NCBI GenBank assembly: GCA_017647405.1
Contig: JAGCKR010000018.1
Coordinates: forward strand, 5,056 to 69,055
Reading direction: 5' to 3'
Source: Alphaproteobacteria bacterium
Lineage (GTDB): Bacteria; Pseudomonadota; Alphaproteobacteria; CAAHEQ01; UBA3637
Length of the DNA stretch: 64,000 nt
Shown here: positions 9,152 to 25,658 of the stretch, piece after piece
Position numbering within the stretch: position 1 is the first letter of the stretch
Layout: every line of letters starts with the position of its first letter
Notes under the pieces: generated by a model
Seen by the model: only the letters and a program-made list of their open reading frames with translations
What the model was told of the DNA's origin: nothing
The model's database searches: none
Made by a program: the position numbers and the translations under genes

Positions 9152-9949
9152 TTAGCGCACAAACATATTTTTAATTTTTAAATATATATCTGCAACTGTT
9201 GACTTTTTCTTATCAGGTGTTTCCTGTTTATTTTGCTGTTTTAAAAGAGTTTCATCTTTTTTGCTTAACAATAAGGCTTTTTTTCTATGTTGCAAAACTT
9301 CTTTTTTCGGAAGCTCCAAAATCTCACCTAACTGTTCACCATGTTTCCAAATGCCTATTAAAAGAGATCTGCCGGCATAGTAACCTTCCTCATTATCTTT
9401 AAAATAATCGCTCGTTCGCTGTTCAGTAGAGTCAACAAGTTCTTCCGTTAATGAACTTATCCCTTGTTTTTTCATTTCTGCTTGCATTAAACGGCCCCAA
9501 TGCTCGGCAAATTTTATTCCTTTTTCTGAATATTGCGCGGTAAATGAGGGAGCATTAATACAATCTAATTGTTCATTTTCAATCAAAGCCTCATCCAGTT
9601 TATTTTGCTGTTGTATCCTTTCAGCTTTTTCTGCCGCTTCTTTCAACCTGATCGGTTCTTGTTTTTTTTCATATTCCAAAAGAGCTGTTCGAGCCAGCTG
9701 TACACCCTCATCAAGCGTTGTATCTTTATTAATTTTAAACACACCCCCATTAAAGGTTGCCTGTATTTCATAATCTTTTTCTTTTTTGGCAATCTCAATC
9801 ATATTGGCAACAGTATCATGAATAGTATAATCACGTTCCCCCACATGATTTTCAAGCGGATCATAGATAATTAATTTGTTTTTTTCATCAAACCGATAAT
9901 GACGCCCTTCTTTTATTTTTTTCATATCAACACGTGCAAAATCAACCAT
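9152..9949 (-). CDS. Hypothetical protein (Lys/Glu-rich, coiled-coil-like middle)
   Basis: 265-aa ORF with no recognisable domain. Confidence 0.55.
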   Translation of the reverse strand: MVDFARVDMKKIKEGRHYRFDEKNKLIIYDPLENHVGERDYTIHDTVANMIEIAKKEKDYEIQATFNGGVFKINKDTTLDEGVQLARTALLEYEKKQEPIRLKEAAEKAERIQQQNKLDEALIENEQLDCINAPSFTAQYSEKGIKFAEHWGRLMQAEMKKQGISSLTEELVDSTEQRTSDYFKDNEEGYYAGRSLLIGIWKHGEQLGEILELPKKEVLQHRKKALLLSKKDETLLKQQNKQETPDKKKSTVADIYLKIKNMFVR

Positions 9950-10010: not shown

Positions 10011-10213
10011 ACAAAAAAACCACCCTAACTGGCGGATTTTTCTCGCTTAAAAAGAATGAATTTTAAATGCCAAACAAGCTATCCTGCACTTGAACCACTC
10101 TTATAAACATCGTTTACTTAAAACACACTAAATCAATTCATTCATTCGCCGAACCCATCTAGCCCTCAGCCAATAAAAAAACCGCCCTAAATGGCGGCTT
10201 TTTTATTGGCTGG
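10011..10213. repeat. Degenerate palindrome (10011-10039), B-type unit and palindrome P2 (10168-10213): left-hand copy of the tRNA-Gln-associated repeat
   Basis: ...GGCGGATTTTTCTCGCTTAA...ATCCTGCACTTGAACC...CATTCGCCGAACCCATCTAGCCCTCAGCCAATAAAAAAACCGCCCTAAATGGCGGCTTTTTTATTGGCTGG aligns by eye with the units at 14490-14839. Confidence 0.6.
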
Positions 10214-10239
10214 AGAGGTCTGGTAATACACGGACTTTA

Positions 10240-10755
10240 TTATTTTACTTTCTGAATATATTTGGGTGGAATAACGCCACCTTTGATAACGATAAGATAG
10301 TAACGAATAAAAGCAAAACGCCATCCCTTTTCATCATCTAAAATAGTGTAATCATTCGCTGTAAAATCAATTTCAGTTAAATCAGAAATTTTATATAAGC
10401 CTTCATCATTTTTATTTTGAGGTTCTTTTTCCAACACAGAAGGACTCACATAAACGGCTTCTATCAACCCATCTTTTTTAAGGGCGGAAATATCAATTTT
10501 AAATAAATCTGATGTTTCTATAAATTTCCTTATGCTAGGTGTGTTTTGAGTGTGTTGCAGTGGTTCAATCAATAACCTAATGCCTCGGCTACGTCCGGCA
10601 AAGCAACTTTCCATCCACTTCACGATATCTGAATGTATCGTTTTTCCTGAACGTTTTATATAGTAATTAATATCTGCTTTTGGATTTTTGGCAAAAGACA
10701 GAATCCCTTCTGATAAAACATTATTCCTTTTTGCAACATAATGGTAAAGATACAT
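10240..10755 (-). CDS. Hypothetical protein (orphan cargo gene)
   Basis: 171-aa ORF with an AAAGGATG-type SD region upstream, terminated by palindrome P2. No domain recognised with confidence. Confidence 0.55.
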   Translation of the reverse strand: MYLYHYVAKRNNVLSEGILSFAKNPKADINYYIKRSGKTIHSDIVKWMESCFAGRSRGIRLLIEPLQHTQNTPSIRKFIETSDLFKIDISALKKDGLIEAVYVSPSVLEKEPQNKNDEGLYKISDLTEIDFTANDYTILDDEKGWRFAFIRYYLIVIKGGVIPPKYIQKVK

Positions 10756-10817
10756 ACTATTTCATCCTTTTTTGTTTTATGTTATACTTAAATATTATAA
10801 AAATCAACTATAATTAC

Positions 10818-11103
10818 CATCTGCAATCTCTGAGATAAAATTTTGACATTCCAAGACAGAAGCATTGTAAAATAAGGCTTTTTGGGATTTTAAGTCCGTG
10901 TAAGGCTGAAAAAGATGCATTTTGAAAAACACCGTACACGGACCAGAATAAGTGATTGTAAAATAAAGACTGCGCAAATAAAAACAATCCAGCGAATTGT
11001 TTTTATGCGTAAAGCAATGAAACACAATGAATTCAAGTGGCAACGCAAAATGAATTGATGTCGGAATTGAAGCTATTTTTAGCGACTTATCTGTTTTGGC
11101 TGG
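10818..11103. repeat. Repeat A, copy 1 (~286 bp)
   Basis: Aligns by eye with 14202-14489 over its full length and with 12819-12970 over its right part. I count only 3 substitutions versus copy 3 in the right ~140 bp. Confidence 0.75.
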
Positions 11104-11175
11104 AAACGATGTACGGTTTGCGAACCTTGTATCTTCTTATTTAGAATTCGATATTAGTTTATTCACTTCCAGTAC

Positions 11176-11715
11176 TTATAAGCTTTGATCTTTAGCATAC
11201 TTTGCCAACATAATAGCTTTTGCAACTTCACTTTGATGTTTAGCTATATCTTTTTGAGATTTGGTTATTTCTCCAGTAGATGAATTTCCTGTTTTACCTA
11301 ATGATTCTGGATTATAATCATAAGAATATAGAGTTGCTTTCATGAAACGTTCTTTATTGCTTGTAAGTGTCTCATGAATTGTTTTTCTTTCAATTTTTTT
11401 ATTTACATCTGCGCCACTTTTTATAAGAAAAGAAACTGTTTCCCAAGAATGGGGGGCGGCGGCATTTGCTAAAGGTGTATATCCTCTATGGTCTAATTCA
11501 TCTATATCTATAACTCCAGTATTTAAGAGTTGCTTCATTTTATTCTTGTCATTTTTGCGTGCTAAACTATGTATAAGCGGTGTAGGTTGATCATAAGTAT
11601 TAAGAATATTTGCTTGTTTTATAACTTCAGAATTTGTGTGCTCCATAATATAGGAAAATATTTCATCTGTAGAATTAATTGAAAAAGATATAGGATGAGA
11701 GTATTGTTTTTGCAT
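11176..11715 (-). CDS. Ankyrin-repeat protein
   Basis: ANK consensus stretches (TPLIHSLARKNDKNKMKQLLNTG; GYTPLANAA...SFLIKSGADVNKK). Confidence 0.8.
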   Translation of the reverse strand: MQKQYSHPISFSINSTDEIFSYIMEHTNSEVIKQANILNTYDQPTPLIHSLARKNDKNKMKQLLNTGVIDIDELDHRGYTPLANAAAPHSWETVSFLIKSGADVNKKIERKTIHETLTSNKERFMKATLYSYDYNPESLGKTGNSSTGEITKSQKDIAKHQSEVAKAIMLAKYAKDQSL

Positions 11716-11855
11716 TAAAAGAGGACGTTAAAATCATATCCTTCTTTATGAAGACTTATAACTGTTTCTAGATTATTATAGGTGATAGCCTTAATAAGTC
11801 TACACTCATTAGATTTTCTTTTAACTTGCGTTAGTTTATCGAGGACATTAGTCAT
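11715..11855 (-). CDS. 46-codon ORF with an ankyrin-like segment, stop overlapping the start of the downstream ankyrin gene (TAATG)
   Basis: MTNVLDKLTQVKRKSNECRLIKAITYNNLETVISLHKEGYDFNVLF. The AI..NNLE.V..L...G.D.N pattern is ANK-like. It may be a split N-terminus of 11176..11715. Confidence 0.35.
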   Translation of the reverse strand: MTNVLDKLTQVKRKSNECRLIKAITYNNLETVISLHKEGYDFNVLF

Positions 11856-12036
11856 ATTAAAATAACTCTATATAAAGTGATTACATGCATATTCCAAATC
11901 TATGGAGAAAAGTCAATAAAATATTACAATTTATAGCTAACCTTAGAAGCCTGTACGCAAATATAGAGTTTATTATTGCGTTAAGATATATTTTGTGGTA
12001 TATGTTTATAAGTGTAATTTATAATCAGTATTAAAA

Positions 12037-12534
12037 ATGTTAAGGTTTCAAAATTTAGTTATTAGAAAAGCGCAAATAACGGATGTTCCTCAATTGGTTT
12101 CTTGGTGGAACGATGGAAAAGTTATGGCGCATGCTGGTTTTCCAAACGGATTAGGTACAACTTCGGAAAAAGTAATATCTCTTCTACAAAAAGATACAGA
12201 GGATAGATGTCATTTTATAATTGAAATAGATAATGCTTCTGTAGGAGAAATGCATTATAAAAAAATAAAAGACTTTTATGTGGAAATTGGTATTAAGATT
12301 TGTGAACAAGATTTTCAAAATAAAGGATTTGGAAAAAAGATTTTATCTCTTTTTATTCAAGAGTTATTTCATAATAAATGTTATAAAATAATTCAGATTA
12401 ATGTCTCAAATGCAAACAATATTGCAAAACATGTGTATACACAGTTAGGGTTTAAAGAAAAATTTAAAGCCGCAGATCTATCTTATGTACAATATGAACT
12501 TGCTTTAGCTGATTTTGTTAGTTATTTAAGGTAA
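12037..12534 (+). CDS. GNAT family N-acetyltransferase
   Basis: Acetyl-CoA binding motif A (QNKGFGKKILSLFIQ) and typical ~165-aa length. Confidence 0.85.
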   Translation: MLRFQNLVIRKAQITDVPQLVSWWNDGKVMAHAGFPNGLGTTSEKVISLLQKDTEDRCHFIIEIDNASVGEMHYKKIKDFYVEIGIKICEQDFQNKGFGKKILSLFIQELFHNKCYKIIQINVSNANNIAKHVYTQLGFKEKFKAADLSYVQYELALADFVSYLR

Positions 12535-12818
12535 ATGTTTTATACAAGTAAAGCTTATGTTAATTTTAGCAGAAGATAAATGTTATCAAGCAGTTAGATT
12601 TGAATTATTAAATACAATATATACTTACTCAGTAAAAAAGATTGCATAAACATTTTTTATTAAATATTTTTTATTTAACCTATGCAAAAATTCGCAGAGG
12701 TTCATTTTTCTGCTCAAAAAAGGCTGAAATTTGCTAAGCTATTGAAAAATATAGAAGCAAGTTCGAAGATGTTGCAAAACAAGCCTTCAAAATATATTCA
12801 TCTTCGAACTAATTCAAA

Positions 12819-12970
12819 TGCTTGTAAAATAAAAACTGCGCAAATAAAAACAATCCAACAAATTGTTTTTATGCGTAAAGCAATGAGACACAATGAATTC
12901 AAGTGGCAACGCAAAATGAATTGATGTCGGAATTGAAGCTATTTCTAGCGACTTATCTGTTTTGCCTGGG
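12819..12970. repeat. Repeat A, copy 2 (right ~150 bp well conserved; sequence further left to ~12690 is only weakly similar)
   Basis: I count 3 substitutions versus copy 3 across GCTTGTAAAATAAA...GCGACTTATCTGTT. Confidence 0.7.
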
Positions 12971-13146
12971 CTACCATGGATTGTGAAATGACTTCGCACA
13001 TTTCATCGCGCGCTTATGCTTGCGACCGCCCAAAGGCGTCTCTCACTCGGATACAAATGAATCCTCGTTCACCGAACATTGGTTCTCGCCCGAGATACCA
13101 AACCAATAACCCCCCCCCCGATAAACGGGGGATTTTTATTGGCTGG
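12971..13146. repeat. Diverged B-type unit (B') ending in palindrome P3 (13103-13146)
   Basis: Same order of elements as 14490-14665: two hairpins, the conserved GCGCTTATGCTTG segment, a CGAAC-containing tRNA-like remnant, then CCAATAACCCCCCCCCCG-ATAAA-CGGGGGATTTTTATTGGCTGG. Confidence 0.5.
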
Positions 13147-13362
13147 ACTTTCTGTACAATATACAAACTACTTGGGATAGGTAAATGAGTATTTTTTAAG
13201 TCGCTCATTCAGTAAAATACAGCAAATGTAATTAAATCATAGTTTTAAACACGCCATAAATTAAATCAATTTCCGGAACTAAATTTAAAATTTAGCATTG
13301 CAATTTTCGGTTTTGTATGTTAGCTTGAAACGGAAGCCACTAAAATAAAAGGAGAATAACAG

Positions 13363-13974
13363 ATGTCTTTTGAATTGATAAATCCAACTCTTGAATACCA
13401 GGAATCTTTTTTAAGATTTGTGGATGAATTGGTGGAAGCTAAGGATCCGTTTTTTGGTCAATATACAAAATATGCCTCTTTCGATAAAAAACAATTGAAA
13501 GAAAATTTTTATTCCTATAAGGTGAAGCCTCTACTAGATGCCCAAGCCGGAATTGGTTTAAAAGAAGGACATGTACCAGACAGCACGTTATGGCTTGTGG
13601 ACACAAATACAAAAGACATTCTGGGGCGTTTTAGTATTCGCCACAGATTAACACCTGCCCTTAGCGAGTTTGGGGGGCATATTGGGTATGTTATTCGACC
13701 GTCTGCCAGAAAGCACGGTTATGCAAAAATTGGTTTGGATTTATCCTTGGACTATTGTCGTGAGAAACTGAGCCTGCCTGAAATTCTGGTAACTTGTGAT
13801 GCCAGAAATGAGGCCTCTTATCGGACAATTATTGGAAGAATGAACGAATGGGGCGGAAGAATTGAAACACCTTTAGCTTTAAAAGACTGTGATATTTTTA
13901 AATCCAATCCTTATCATCCCATTAATAAAAATAACATAGAGTTACGATTTTGGTTAAAAACAAATAAAAAATAA
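13363..13974 (+). CDS. GNAT-like acetyltransferase
   Basis: GHIGYVIRPSARKHGYAKIGLDLSLDY matches the GNAT motif A region. AAGGAG SD upstream. Confidence 0.7.
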   Translation: MSFELINPTLEYQESFLRFVDELVEAKDPFFGQYTKYASFDKKQLKENFYSYKVKPLLDAQAGIGLKEGHVPDSTLWLVDTNTKDILGRFSIRHRLTPALSEFGGHIGYVIRPSARKHGYAKIGLDLSLDYCREKLSLPEILVTCDARNEASYRTIIGRMNEWGGRIETPLALKDCDIFKSNPYHPINKNNIELRFWLKTNKK

Positions 13975-14201
13975 TTCAATATCTGTAAGTGATTATGGGG
14001 TGGGTTTTAAGTTTTTTTGGAGACAGTTATTTTTTTGTTGACTTTTTTCTAAAAATGATATAAGTTCATTTCATCAACACCTGATTAAAAGTTTGAAGTA
14101 TTTCTTTTTGTGTTTGTCAAAATAACCTTGACTTTATAAAAATCGAGGTTAGGTACATAAAAAAAACAATGTGCAACATCACATCAAACATAGTTCAAAG
14201 G

Positions 14202-14489
14202 CATCTTCCTCTCTCTGGGATAAAAATTTGACATCCCAAGACAGAAGTATTGAAAAATAAGGATTTTTTGAAAATAAAGTCCGTGTAGGGCTGAAAAACA
14301 GGCTTTTTGAAAAACGCTGTACACGGACCAGAATAAGTGCTTGTAAAATAAAGACTGCGCAAATAAAAACAATCCAGCGAATTGTTTTTATGCGTAAAGC
14401 AATGAGACACAATGAATTCAAGTGGCAACGCAAAATGAATTGATGTCGGAATTGAAGCTATTTCTAGCGACTTATCTGTTATCCCTAAA
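14202..14489. repeat. Repeat A, copy 3 (~288 bp)
   Basis: Full-length match to copy 1. It contains hairpins GTCCGTGTA...TACACGGAC and AAAAACAAT-CCAGCGA-ATTGTTTTT. Confidence 0.75.
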
Positions 14490-14839
14490 GGTGGCTGGAT
14501 TGTAAATTGCAAGCAATTTATCCTGCGCTTAGGCTTGAACCGTCCTTGCGGACGTCGTTCGCCTTCGGCTCACCGAACCAACTTCATTCCATTCGTTGGG
14601 CCGAACCAATCTATCCCCAGCCAATAAAAAAACCGCCCTAAATGGCGGCTTTTTTAACCGCTTAAGGTGGCTGGATTGTAAATTGCAAGCAATTTATCCT
14701 GCGCTTGCGCTTGGACCGTCCTTGCGGACGTCTACTTCGCTAACGCTCCGTGAACGAACCAACTACTCCCGTTGCTTCGAACCAGTTACTCTCAGCCAAT
14801 AAAAAAACCGCCCTAAATGGCGGCTTTTTTATTGGCTGG
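14490..14839. repeat. Two tandem B units (14490-14665, 14666-14839), each ending in a palindrome (P4 ~14618-14660, P5 14793-14839), abutting tRNA-Gln
   Basis: Both units start with GGTGGCTGGATT, which equals the first 12 nt (plus strand) of the tRNA-Gln gene at 14840. Both contain a degenerate inverted copy of the tRNA 3' half (14585-14623; 14768-14798). Confidence 0.75.
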
Positions 14840-14907
14840 GGTGGCTGGATTCGAACCAACGAATGGCGGAATCAGAATCCGCTGCCTTACCACTTGGCGA
14901 CACCCCA
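14833..14907 (-). tRNA. tRNA-Gln (anticodon CTG), CCA encoded
   Basis: The reverse complement TGGGGTGTCGCCAAGTGGTAAGGCAGCGGATTCTGATTCCGCCATTCGTTGGTTCGAATCCAGCCACCCCAGCCA folds as a cloverleaf. The anticodon loop is TTCTGAT. It closely resembles E. coli tRNA-Gln as I remember it. Confidence 0.9.
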
Positions 14908-14958: not shown

Positions 14959-15246
14959 CTAATCTTCCCCAAATCGGTTATTTATCAAGTTTTTTAAGCT
15001 TTCTATCGCTTCATCGGAATCGGGACCCACCGCTTTTATCTCAATCTCATCACCCAAAGGAACCCCTAACATCAAAATTCCCATAATCGACTTGCCGGAA
15101 ACCGTTACCCCTTCTTTATTCGTTATCGTAATATCAGATTGAAATTTTTCGGCTTCTTTTACAAAACTGGCTGTTGCCCGTGCATGCAAACCTTTTAAAT
15201 TTTGAATCGTAATTTTTAAACTATTTTCTTTCATCTTATGAATCAA
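14959..15246 (-). CDS. ptsH: HPr-family phosphocarrier protein
   Basis: Active-site region GLHARATASF (His-15 equivalent) and GKSIMGILMLG motif; ~95 aa. Confidence 0.88.
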   Translation of the reverse strand: MIHKMKENSLKITIQNLKGLHARATASFVKEAEKFQSDITITNKEGVTVSGKSIMGILMLGVPLGDEIEIKAVGPDSDEAIESLKNLINNRFGED

Positions 15247-25229: not shown

Positions 25230-25244
25230 TATCTATCGACGATG

Positions 25245-25320
25245 GCGGAATAGCTCAGATGGTAGAGCGGTGGAATCATAATCCATGTGTCGGGGGTTCG
25301 ATCCCCTCTTCCGCTACCAG
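25245..25320 (+). tRNA. tRNA with CAT anticodon (elongator Met or lysidine-type Ile2; not initiator-like), CCA encoded
   Basis: GGCGGAATAGCTCAGATGGTAGAGCGGTGGAATCATAATCCATGTGTCGGGGGTTCGATCCCCTCTTCCGCTACCA folds as a cloverleaf. The 1:72 position is paired (G-U) and the anticodon stem has no GGG/CCC run. Confidence 0.85.
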
Positions 25321-25329
25321 ATTAAAAAA

Positions 25330-25359
25330 GACTTTGTTTTTGAACAAAGTCTTTTTTTT
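25330..25359 (+). terminator. Intrinsic terminator after tRNA(CAT)
   Basis: GACTTTGTT (25330-25338) / AACAAAGTC (25343-25351), 4-nt loop, T8 run. Confidence 0.7.
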
Positions 25360-25397
25360 ATATTGAACAATAATCTTATAAAACATCTATCACTGAT

Positions 25398-25475
25398 GGC
25401 AAAAGAACTTAAAGGCAAGAGCGGTGGAATCATAATCCATGTGCCCGAGGGTTCGATCCCCTCTTGAAGCTACCA
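25398..25475 (+). pseudogene. Decayed tandem copy 1 of tRNA(CAT): 3' two-thirds retained, 5' acceptor/D-arm scrambled
   Basis: GGCAAAAGAACTTAAAGGCAAGAGCGGTGGAATCATAATCCATGTGCCCGAGGGTTCGATCCCCTCTTGAAGCTACCA. The acceptor strands no longer pair. It is followed by its own copy of the terminator. Confidence 0.6.
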
Positions 25476-25553
25476 GATTAAAAAAGACTTTGTTTTTGAA
25501 CAAGGTCTTTTTTTTATATTGAACAATAATCTTATAAAACATCTATCACTGAT

Positions 25554-25632
25554 GGCAAAAGAACTTAAAGGCAAGAGCGGTGGAATCATAATCCTAAGTG
25601 CCAAAGGGTTCGATCCCCTCTTGAAGCTACCA
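25554..25632 (+). pseudogene. Decayed tandem copy 2 of tRNA(CAT)
   Basis: Same as copy 1, with further changes (ATCCTAAGTGCCAAAGGGTTCGATCC). Confidence 0.6.
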
Positions 25633-25658
25633 GATTAAAGAAGATCTTCCTGATTATC

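Follow-up and report, generated by a model that had tools for sequence, protein, structure and literature searches.

The window analysed here, 64,000 nucleotides of contig JAGCKR010000018.1 from an Alphaproteobacteria bacterium (assembly GCA_017647405.1), contains an array of small genes and conserved repeats strung out behind an intact tRNA-Gln(CUG) gene. This array probably consists of three non-autonomous cassettes that lack a recombinase gene and four pseudo-attachment units, termed B, which would have been built up by site-specific recombination at the CCA end of the tRNA gene through a large serine recombinase (LSR) acting in trans, and which have since partly decayed. A preliminary description made from the sequence alone had proposed that small cassettes, delimited by copies of the tRNA 3' end, are anchored on tRNA-Gln and are either serviced in trans or decaying, and this proposal holds up against both of the findings that had been named there as refuting it.

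Read outward from the tRNA gene, the order of the units is tRNA, B2, B1, cassette 1, B', cassette 2, cassette 3, final B and a conserved flank gene. The borders of the variable locus that remain fixed are this flank gene (9152-9949) and the gene for NPr (14959-15234). The three gene segments are 0.9-1.9 kb in length and are headed by copies of a repeat, A, while the elements conserved throughout the family of such cassettes are a hairpin, sA, an inverted repeat of the word GTCCGTGTA and a 30-nt distal motif, D. The features of the locus are as follows.

14833-14907, minus strand: intact tRNA-Gln(CUG), anticodon ctg, found by ARAGORN and Rfam (Rfam tRNA, 60.4 bits)
14666-14831, minus strand: B2, with the tRNA's bidirectional terminator, a structured body of ~100 nt and a pseudo-tRNA 3' end finishing in CAATCCAGCCACC
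14490-14665, minus strand: B1, a tandem copy of B2 (83% identity) with the variant junction TTAAGCGGTT (14656-14665)
13139-14489, minus strand: cassette 1, a chimera
14212-14480, minus strand: A3, the tRNA-proximal (P') arm of cassette 1, with a split sA hairpin, the inverted repeat GTCCGTGTA/TACACGGAC (14279/14320) and the ~115-nt A-core insertion, which has a terminator of its own
13363-13974, plus strand: GNAT-like gene of cassette 1, 203 aa
12962-13138, minus strand: B', with a terminator of different stem (CCCCCG/CGGGGG) and a structured body, ending in AATCCATGGTAGCCCAGGCAA
11096-12961, minus strand: cassette 2, G+C 25-30%
12037-12534, plus strand: GNAT gene of cassette 2, 165 aa
11176-11715, minus strand: ankyrin gene of cassette 2, 179 aa
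10206-11095, minus strand: cassette 3
10240-10755, minus strand: orphan gene of cassette 3, 171 aa, with a predicted DarT-like ADP-ribosyltransferase fold
10011-10205, minus strand: final B, with a terminator palindrome, a degenerate body and a second terminator
9152-9949, minus strand: conserved distal flank gene, 265 aa, with a Tad4-like domain
10955-11095, 12821-12961 and 14340-14479: the A core in its three copies
14832-14839, 13139-13146, 12962-12969 (one mismatch), 11096-11103 and 10206-10213, minus strand: the core CCAGCCAA, located by word match

The word shared by the boundaries of these units, TTGGCTGG or CCAGCCAA when read on the tRNA strand, is made up of the last seven nucleotides of tRNA-Gln, encoded CCA included, and one further A. 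It is found at five boundaries in the window and at more than 80 junctions in other loci. The preliminary description had instead taken as the common element a 12-mer, GGTGGCTGGATT, with which each B unit was said to begin. This does occur in B1, B2 and the tRNA (three occurrences against 0.18 expected), but B' has only a diverged version of it and final B has none; what the units truly have in common is the terminal CCAGCCA(A).

The repeats themselves are concentrated at this locus. A 48-mer of A occurs three times and a 27-mer of the terminator four times in the window, with no occurrence of either expected, and the 9-mer GTCCGTGTA occurs five times against about 0.5 expected, every time at the locus: D holds one of these copies, and A1 and A3 each hold an inverted pair. 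The three copies of A lie at 10827-11095 (A1), 12693-12961 (A2) and 14212-14480 (A3). Over their right 143 nt any two of them differ at only 4-6 positions (the preliminary description had counted three); their left parts are 93% identical between A1 and A3 and different in A2. The B units comprise the tandem pair at 14490-14655 and 14666-14831 (period 175/176 nt), B' at 12962-13138 and final B at 10011-10205, and no further copy of A or B is found in the remaining 59 kb of the window.

All four gene calls of the preliminary description (orphan gene of 171 aa, ankyrin gene of 179 aa, GNAT genes of 165 and 203 aa) are confirmed, as is the AT-richness of the cargo, the G+C content being 25-30% at 11.6-12.8 kb against 35-40% in the flanks. 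The absence of a recombinase gene from the 64 kb is also corroborated. When the window was annotated with Pfam by way of identical proteins on public contigs, which cover the whole of it, only housekeeping genes were apparent and no called gene bore a recombinase, integrase, transposase or resolvase family; tblastn with Hin, small resolvase and XerD queries likewise gave no match in the window.

The attachment module that lies between neighbouring cassettes is conserved over ~230 nt and contains two separate hairpins. Its proximal arm consists of sA, a hairpin terminator GTCGCTAGAAATAGCGAC followed by a T-run, and of an inverted repeat, 'hp', with the arms GTCCGTGTAC…GTACACGGAC (also read as GGTCCGTGTAC…GTACACGGACC). 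The distal arm D reads AGTCCGTGTATTACCAGACYTCT, and D together with the core, on the minus strand at 10206-10240, is AGTCCGTGTATTACCAGACCTCTCCAGCCAA. At 18 of its 30 positions D matches the T arm and 3' part of the acceptor of tRNA-Gln, of which it is a diverged copy. In an alignment of 45 modules, column identity is 80-100% over ~150 nt past the core and then decays. The inverted repeat exists in two sequence types, both of which keep the stem, and the distal end is of a non-D kind in all three of the type-2 cassettes for which it can be read (window cassette 2, L003 and L035). As type-2 inverted repeats go with non-D distal arms, both ends of a cassette co-vary as one unit.

The A repeat is this proximal arm carrying an optional insertion of ~115 nt, the A core, within the sA hairpin. 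Only the smaller share of cassettes has the insertion, and arms with and without it are found side by side in the same species. It contains the two AATGAATT(C/G)A motifs that had been noticed in A, although these are 23 nt apart from start to start, with a gap of 13 nt, rather than 21 nt apart. Because the A core is missing from most cassettes of the family, it is unlikely that these motifs act as arm-type recombinase sites, as had been suggested. Three direct repeats resembling (A/T)TGAATT(C/G)A and a terminator of its own can also be discerned in the A core, the stem of the terminator differing between lineages through compensatory changes. The possibility that the A core is a structured RNA or a micro-ORF was considered and rejected: terminators excepted, it folds no better than shuffled sequence, and the 3' end of a 17-codon open reading frame (ORF) in it is not conserved in other copies.

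The same arrangement recurs in other members of the gut Alphaproteobacteria. A 16-mer of D identifies ~33 loci from ~25 metagenome-assembled genomes (MAGs) of this group from human, sheep, yak, buffalo, deer and rabbit, its other matches being chance occurrences in unrelated phyla; a scan of metagenome contigs yielded four loci, which belong to a single assembly. At least 12 other species-level MAGs have tRNA-Gln followed by sA, hp, one or more ORFs in either orientation, D with the core, and then the next sA. One array, in a buffalo MAG (L052 and L094, which are one contig), extends over at least 17 kb. Such ordered arrays starting at tRNA-Gln are not the distribution of a generic family of miniature inverted-repeat transposable elements (MITEs) or repetitive extragenic palindromic (REP) elements spread through the genome, which the preliminary description had named as the finding that would speak against it.

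Evidence for the means by which these arrays arise comes from the junctions between their units. When these were counted over non-redundant loci from ~35 MAGs, the following combinations were found.

tRNA/sA: 10
tRNA/B-terminator: at least 3
D/sA: 17
D/B-terminator: 16
D2/sA, D2 being a variant of D: 3
B end/sA: 4
junctions to other terminators or to unique DNA: ~30

Four kinds of partner thus occur on the left (intact tRNA-Gln, D, D2 and the end of a B unit) and at least three on the right (the sA module, a B-type terminator and unique flanking DNA), and all of the junctions fall directly after CCAGCCA. As unrelated left and right arms reassort at a single nucleotide position, the comparison indicates site-specific recombination rather than homologous exchange.

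The locus is hypervariable between near-identical strains. Among strains with an identical NPr protein two arrangements are found, that of the window (L004, L005 and L008) and one (L006 and L007) in which tRNA-Gln/CCAGCCAA is directly followed by the short form of A and a gene encoding MORN repeats where the window has B2, the left end of this insertion alone being visible. Strain L215, with a cysS 99.5% identical to that of the window, has the same distal flank gene, followed by a terminator, the core, D and a 345-aa gene (orf345) with a short A; it has neither the body of final B nor the 171-aa gene, the D/orf345 cassette standing where the window has D and the 171-aa gene. Cassette 2 is absent from L015 and L017, which have two other genes between the 203-aa GNAT gene and the tRNA, and is rearranged in L013. 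In two of these comparisons (tRNA/sA-MORN against tRNA/B2, and D/orf345 against D/171-aa gene) the presence or absence of a cassette coincides exactly with the repeat. The invariance that had been set against the mobility of the locus is therefore not observed, since strains with an identical NPr or a 99.5%-identical cysS hold different cassettes after the tRNA and beside the distal flank.

Cassettes are also shared over much greater distances. The cysS of the window is only 83.5% identical to that of MAG JAZOOQ01 (L013), yet the identity between the two is 100% for the 203-aa GNAT gene, 99.8% for the 165-aa GNAT gene, 99.4% for the 171-aa gene and 98-99.5% for the spacers, with the order and context of the cassettes differing. 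The same cassette ends are found in different MAG species as well, and this near-identity between otherwise diverged genomes points firmly to the transfer of cassettes between species. Two further observations concern the tRNA gene itself. At L013 6216-6238, JAZOOQ01 has a lone stretch of 23 nt that copies the tRNA-Gln 3' end. It is oriented against the array, with dxs and further genes lying in between, which points to an inversion between att sites. In L009, which encodes an identical NPr protein, the tRNA-Gln gene (1263-1337) differs solely in the T arm (GTAGGTTCGATCCCTTC against GTTGGTTCGAATCCAGC, 93% identity overall), and its 3' part could have been replaced by an incoming element.

A candidate for the enzyme responsible, a large serine recombinase, is found in relatives of the window strain and not in the window. 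Among the Pfam families listed (25 of 118) for 134 ORFs from the arrays, the cargo includes ankyrin, MORN, GNAT and glycosyltransferase families, the only recombinase family is Resolvase, and Phage_integrase does not appear. A tblastn search with XerD through 129 sequences (~1 Mb) detected no tyrosine recombinase, and a tyrosine or Xer enzyme was rejected as the recombinase of the arrays. A serine recombinase of 200 aa lies inside cassettes of five MAG species, with 98-99.5% amino-acid identity between them. In L121/L135 and in L122, a unit of ~12 kb has sA-hp on the tRNA side and D or D2 on the far side, and encodes this small recombinase (here a 202-aa resolvase), Dam, DUF3768 and an LSR of 532 aa. 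The last has the Pfam domains Resolvase, Recombinase and Zn_ribbon_recom, with an N-terminal domain resembling the TP901-1 integrase, and the word GTCCGTGTA is present in the promoter region of its gene as well, ~35 nt upstream of the start codon.

The LSR is closely tied to the distal arm of its element. A search of 185,579 species genomes with an LSR alignment gave 522 loci, and the analysis covered the best 80 of these. A composite pattern of the distal arm gave 22 matches, all of them downstream of the LSR gene and on its strand, at 17 of the 18 loci with an LSR at least 45% identical; at these loci there was no match upstream or on the other strand. The arm lies 26-50 nt past the LSR stop codon in four cases (L146, L147, L150 and L156). 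Around more distant LSRs, just four matches occur in 984 kb. These more distant members of the clade (L154-L214) are from gut MAGs, Ca. Enterousia, Rickettsia, Tisiphia and Megaera, and each of their genes stops within a convergent tRNA gene or at the 3' terminus of one, the tRNAs concerned being those for Pro, Gln, Met, Asp, Leu, Arg, Glu, Thr, Val, Ala and Asn. Examples of LSR frames that extend into the tRNA are L183 and L170 (11420-11500 in each). Judging from this placement, they look like tRNA-specific LSR integrases with att sites that can be read from the genome. In a sister lineage (L117/L120 near 14280, and L136-L143) the same module plan is found with a core, CCTGCCA, that matches the 3' end of tRNA-Trp, in the arrangement tRNA-Trp/CTCAAGATAAAG-hairpin-TTTTTTCTTTATA, and the LSRs are 57-62% identical to the tRNA-Gln type.

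Of the 80 loci, ~12 encode a small serine recombinase at a distance of 0.4-2.4 kb upstream from the LSR, and ~24 have one within the flanks. The idea that this small resolvase alone recombines the arrays was discarded, as its homologues occur in many contexts without arrays and it is better explained as a partner of the LSR. Approximately 200 nt upstream of its gene are conserved (L061 4800-5020, L112 200-434, L042 582-860 on the reverse complement, and L002 170-330) and hold the inverted repeats ACCACAAACCAACGTTTGTGGT and AAAAGTGG-26 nt-CCACTTTT, which may be its own res-like or operator sites. In L002, only the first codons of the gene are left, fused to D. An apparent circular permutation of a resolvase cassette between L042 and L099 was set aside, for its ends are not at att sites.

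Taken in the direction of the tRNA, a cassette comprises a proximal arm, one to three cargo genes in either orientation, the distal arm D and the core CCAGCCAA. In att terms, the joint of tRNA and sA (or A) corresponds to attL, that of D and a terminator to attR, and the D/sA joint between neighbours to an attP-like site. The rare autonomous members of ~12 kb, which have the same arms, would supply the LSR and the small serine recombinase, and these two enzymes would integrate and excise cassettes in trans, with a crossover lying within or next to the terminal encoded CCA. The LSR is thus the putative catalyst, and the array in the window may still be mobile in part.

The B units would fit into this scheme as spare attB sites, given that they retain the tRNA terminator and a pseudo-tRNA 3' end. 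Their general plan is to begin with the tRNA's own bidirectional terminator and to finish with a hairpin and …CAATCCAGCCA(C/G)CCCAGCCAA, and a B unit is frequently the first unit after the tRNA. Final B, the body of which is not present in L215, is the right half (B') of an attachment site whose left half is the tRNA-Gln 3' end, with its T arm, acceptor strand and encoded CCA. Most likely the B units serve as spare or decoy attB sites, and possibly they are structured RNAs as well, as the structures of their hairpins and terminators are kept across species through compensatory changes (seen by eye; RNAalifold on a MAFFT alignment gives a poor consensus). They were rejected as a known RNA family, tmRNA or RtT, because Rfam finds only the tRNA, both at the gathering cut-off and at E ≤ 5. 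At two of their junctions the core CCAGCCAA(AA) has been replaced, by TTTAGGGATAA at B1/A3 (14480-14489) and by TTAAGCGGTT at B2/B1 (14656-14665); the former is kept in L015 and in another species (L035), and so is not the outcome of random decay.

The state of preservation of the cassettes in the window is uneven. Cassette 3 looks intact, being composed of A1 (10827-11095), the orphan gene and a canonical D and core (10206-10240). In cassette 2, the proximal A2 consists of an A core (12821-12961) and a type-2 inverted repeat, GTTCGAAGATG/CATCTTCGAAC (12680-12815), and the distal arm and core at 11096-11135 are non-canonical. Cassette 1 contains, in order, the variant junction TTTAGGGATAA, A3, a leader, a remnant of the gene orf208, the GNAT-like gene and a degenerate distal arm with the core (13139-13170). 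As its leader (14043-14206) has 164 nt in common with the orf345 cassette of L215, and as 13975-14019 is what is left (45 nt, from the 3' end) of an orf208 gene found whole in L015, it is a deletion chimera, and part of the array, in consequence, really is a graveyard. The preliminary description had offered a recombinase acting in trans and a graveyard of decayed islets as alternatives; each is partly true, with cassette 3 seemingly intact and cassettes 1 and 2 chimeric or degenerate at their ends.

The orphan protein of cassette 3 belongs to a family of 374 clusters that is restricted to this clade and has no match in Pfam; its invariant residues include YHY…GRSRGIR…E. Because no other cassette recurs as often, the possibility that it is the missing recombinase was entertained, and it was rejected in this role. 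Its AlphaFold2 model (predicted local distance difference test score 93) is closest to DarT/DarTG, KptA/Tpt1 and the pertussis toxin S1 subunit, which suggests that it is probably an enzyme or toxin of the ADP-ribosyltransferase fold, and distant homologues are found outside arrays.

Several observations weigh against the assembly of the array by an LSR in trans. There is no LSR in the 64 kb of the window, and among the best 80 of the 522 loci a close LSR is not seen in most of the array-bearing MAGs, which are incomplete; members of the small serine recombinase family are present, too, where there is no array. Canonical LSR integrases recombine only attP with attB, so that head-to-tail arrays require either a permissive enzyme, as CcrAB and TnpX are, or docking at spare attB sites. 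No circular intermediate was recovered, nor any pair of empty and occupied sites with both ends sequenced, and the dyad symmetry of the putative attP is not significant, being equalled by 807 of 2000 shuffles. The loss of cassette 2 from L015 is explained equally well by homologous recombination between copies of A, and several rearrangements lie away from the att sites, among them the one that made cassette 1 a chimera, the AAGTGATTA junction of L013 and the resolvase context of L099. Illegitimate and homologous recombination hence also shape the array.

In a rival reading the locus is a frozen graveyard, in which ancient integrations at tRNA-Gln are no longer moved by any site-specific enzyme and the diversity reflects homologous or unequal crossing-over, illegitimate deletion and the uptake of foreign DNA anchored on the repeats. 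The deletion that produced cassette 1, the degenerate distal arms of cassettes 1 and 2, the two B junctions without a core, the junctions at microhomologies outside att sites and the want of an encoded recombinase in the window all accord with it, and recombination between identical A cores or terminators could account for what L015 (cassette 2) and L215 (the body of final B) have lost. It is nevertheless unlikely. Dozens of unrelated cassettes and species have D (30 nt) and the sA module (~150 nt) in almost unchanged form, while D itself agrees with the tRNA at only 18 of 30 positions, so they are not behaving as decaying scars; non-homologous partners meet at one fixed position; cassettes are 99-100% identical between species with cysS only 83.5% identical; and autonomous members with an LSR exist. 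Neither does it seem that the repeats are primarily functional RNA or regulatory modules (small RNA genes, terminators, or a tRNA-like B comparable to the rtT of E. coli tyrT) duplicated with the tRNA 3' end between ordinary island genes, which is quite improbable. In the sense direction of the tRNA, the sA hairpin and its T-run form a canonical intrinsic terminator, a near-consensus TTGACA-17-TAAAAT lies on the opposite strand of some copies, the B hairpins and all terminators keep their structure by compensatory changes, and the tRNA-Met of the window is also trailed by two decayed tandem copies. Against this, promoter-like sites are not enriched (21 against 20 expected) and the -35 box is missing from about half of the copies, although these promoter and terminator scans speak neither for nor against the antisense small RNA idea; the A core apart from its terminators, as noted, folds like its shuffles, Rfam recognises just the tRNA, and the position-exact combinatorial joints, the linkage to the LSR and the transfer between species would be left unexplained. 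An RNA function could coexist with one in recombination.

Elements of tyrosine recombinases typically show tandem arrays with attP-like joints, and arm-like repeats on both sides of a short core at the 3' end of a tRNA gene, and the three copies of GTCCGTGTA around the core do look like arm sites. The array might then be integron-like, or a classical island, run by an IntI-like, P4-like or XerCD enzyme encoded elsewhere. This is highly improbable, as the XerD search and the Pfam families listed for the array ORFs were negative as described above, serine recombinases are the only recombinases found inside the array boundaries, and there is no single imperfect hairpin of the attC kind. It is scarcely credible that A and B are non-autonomous MITE- or REP-like transposons piled up in an intergenic hotspot: they are short, conserved, hairpin-bearing and intergenic, with no enzyme encoded nearby, but they have no terminal inverted repeats and no target-site duplications, they are absent from the other 59 kb, and the order and orientation of the modules are fixed relative to the tRNA and to each other. 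Assembly by site-specific recombination with a trans-acting LSR remains the probable reading.

The closest precedent is provided by the ssrA islands of Dehalococcoides (DsiB/DsiA). These stand in tandem behind a single tDNA with short direct repeats of its 3' end, measure several kb to tens of kb, and in 16 cases have their own integration module, with a CcrB-like LSR, whose ORF overlaps att, and a second, smaller serine recombinase; some have no integration module and are considered cis-mobilizable (PMC3146451, in which staphylococcal cassette chromosome elements, SCCmec and ψSCC, are also discussed). The likeness lies in the tandem units, the direct repeats, the pairing of an LSR with a small serine recombinase and the integrase-less members, and the overlap of the LSR frame with att and the tDNA 3' end is matched in distant members of the present clade (L183 and L170). 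In the relatives of the window strain, the LSR is indeed at the edge of the autonomous members, by the att site and paired with a second serine recombinase, and the window cassettes and most other array cassettes have the same att sites without a recombinase. The targets differ, being the T-loop of tmRNA in Dehalococcoides and the CCA end of tRNA-Gln here, and so do the sizes, as most units here have 0.7-1.9 kb, one to three genes and no recombinase, whereas the Dehalococcoides islands are larger. Unlike those islands, the present elements also have highly conserved arms of ~230 nt and, in the D type, an LSR at the distal end of its element.

Next closest are SCCmec and ψSCC. SCC elements are cassettes of 3-60 kb that are inserted at the 3' end of a conserved gene, rlmH (orfX), by the serine recombinases CcrAB or CcrC, and they form tandem composites split by direct repeats, with a two-recombinase module and with pseudo-elements that lack ccr and are presumed to be mobilised in trans. 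The 3'-end target, the tandem composites, the recombinase-less members and the two-recombinase module are all in common with the arrays described here. SCC differs in host phylum and target, and has neither a tRNA nor long conserved arms with hairpin and inverted-repeat modules; for the arrays here, moreover, recombination is inferred from sequence. Cis-mobilizable elements (CIMEs) of streptococci, which have functional att sites without recombination genes and are formed or mobilised via tandem accretion with an autonomous integrative conjugative or integrative mobilizable element (ICE or IME), are similar in being att-flanked, devoid of recombination genes and moved through an autonomous element. 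CIMEs are usually deletion derivatives of one ICE, with few per site, and depend on a tyrosine or DDE recombinase. In E. coli, tyrT is followed by 3.14 copies of a 178-bp repeat (rtT RNA, Rfam RtT), each ending in the 3'-terminal nucleotides of the tRNA, which recalls the ~175-nt tandem units B1 and B2 with their tRNA 3' ends. There is no sequence or Rfam similarity between them, with no match to RtT at E ≤ 5, and the B units are additionally dispersed between cassettes as junction partners.

In the tRNA islands of Prochlorococcus, tycheposons number 1-2 per genome, and 910 of 937 elements have a tyrosine recombinase, often with replication genes (bioRxiv 10.1101/2020.12.28.424599). Their accretion at a tRNA that pushes older elements distally, their scattered partial tRNAs and their decayed remnants are reminiscent of the present locus, and the cargo there is niche-related; they differ in having their own integrase and in not being arrays of uniform single-gene cassettes with shared arms. 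As in tDNA islands generally, the window has an intact tRNA at one end and direct repeats of its 3' end at the boundaries, but none of the three window cassettes, and few elsewhere, has an integrase of its own. With integrons and integrase-less integron cassette clusters (CALINs), the arrays share small, mostly single-gene cassettes that vary between strains, GNAT and orphan cargo, an enzyme encoded outside the cassettes and a module between them. They differ from integrons in the orientation of the genes, which run both ways, in the tRNA anchor, in the serine recombinase as candidate enzyme, and in having a conserved module of ~230 nt rather than an attC hairpin, and neither IntI nor attI. 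No recombinase family of Pfam occurs in the window and no XerD-like match in the 129 sequences; the imperfect palindromes of 57-141 nt with R''/L''-L'/R' boxes and a GTTRRRY core that define attC are not found, the boundary word being CCAGCCAA. Searches of the literature brought up no prior description of this cassette system. What is new here are the miniaturised, single-gene, recombinase-less cassettes with their ~230-nt module, the CCA end as a target, the B units and the host clade.

Some other features of the window deserve mention. As the 265-aa flank protein has a domain resembling Tad4, from a family of Thoeris inhibitors (E 1.2e-6, which is above the Pfam cut-off), the cassette locus is bordered by a gene of anti-defence type. 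Behind a tRNA-Met(CAT) at 25244-25650 there are two decayed tandem copies of this tRNA, with a period of 156 nt, each of which retains the anticodon and T-arm region, the terminator and a promoter-like box upstream. They constitute the second tRNA-linked tandem repeat of the window, and LSRs of the clade are also found at tRNA-Met elsewhere (L172 and L178). An ORF of 913 aa on the minus strand (60438-63179), which matches no Pfam family, includes ~6 copies of an 18-nt tandem repeat, CCACCAAGGCCTGTGCCA, at 60817-60991.

A broader proposal, put forward tentatively, as somewhat less likely than not, is that these arrays are an integron-like platform for gene capture in which an LSR, paired with a small serine recombinase, would do the work of IntI. 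The part of attI would be taken by the CCA end of tRNA-Gln, or of tRNA-Trp in the sister lineage, the B units would multiply the docking sites, and single-gene cassettes of 0.7-2 kb with the ~230-nt module would circulate between species of uncultured gut Alphaproteobacteria, bearing cargo of host-interaction or defence type (GNAT, ankyrin, MORN and DarT-like ADP-ribosyltransferase). If this is true, it would explain a hypervariable locus that breaks metagenome assemblies, and would offer a PCR-addressable window on the flexible gene pool through conserved primers on the tRNA, D and sA. It would also add a clade of LSRs specific for tRNA 3' ends, with differing tRNA specificities and genome-readable att sites, to a class of enzymes sought as tools for genome engineering. 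For the organisms themselves, a poorly known and uncultured lineage of human and ruminant microbiomes, it would mean that those in the gut can capture genes in the integron style by a second route with a mechanism of its own.

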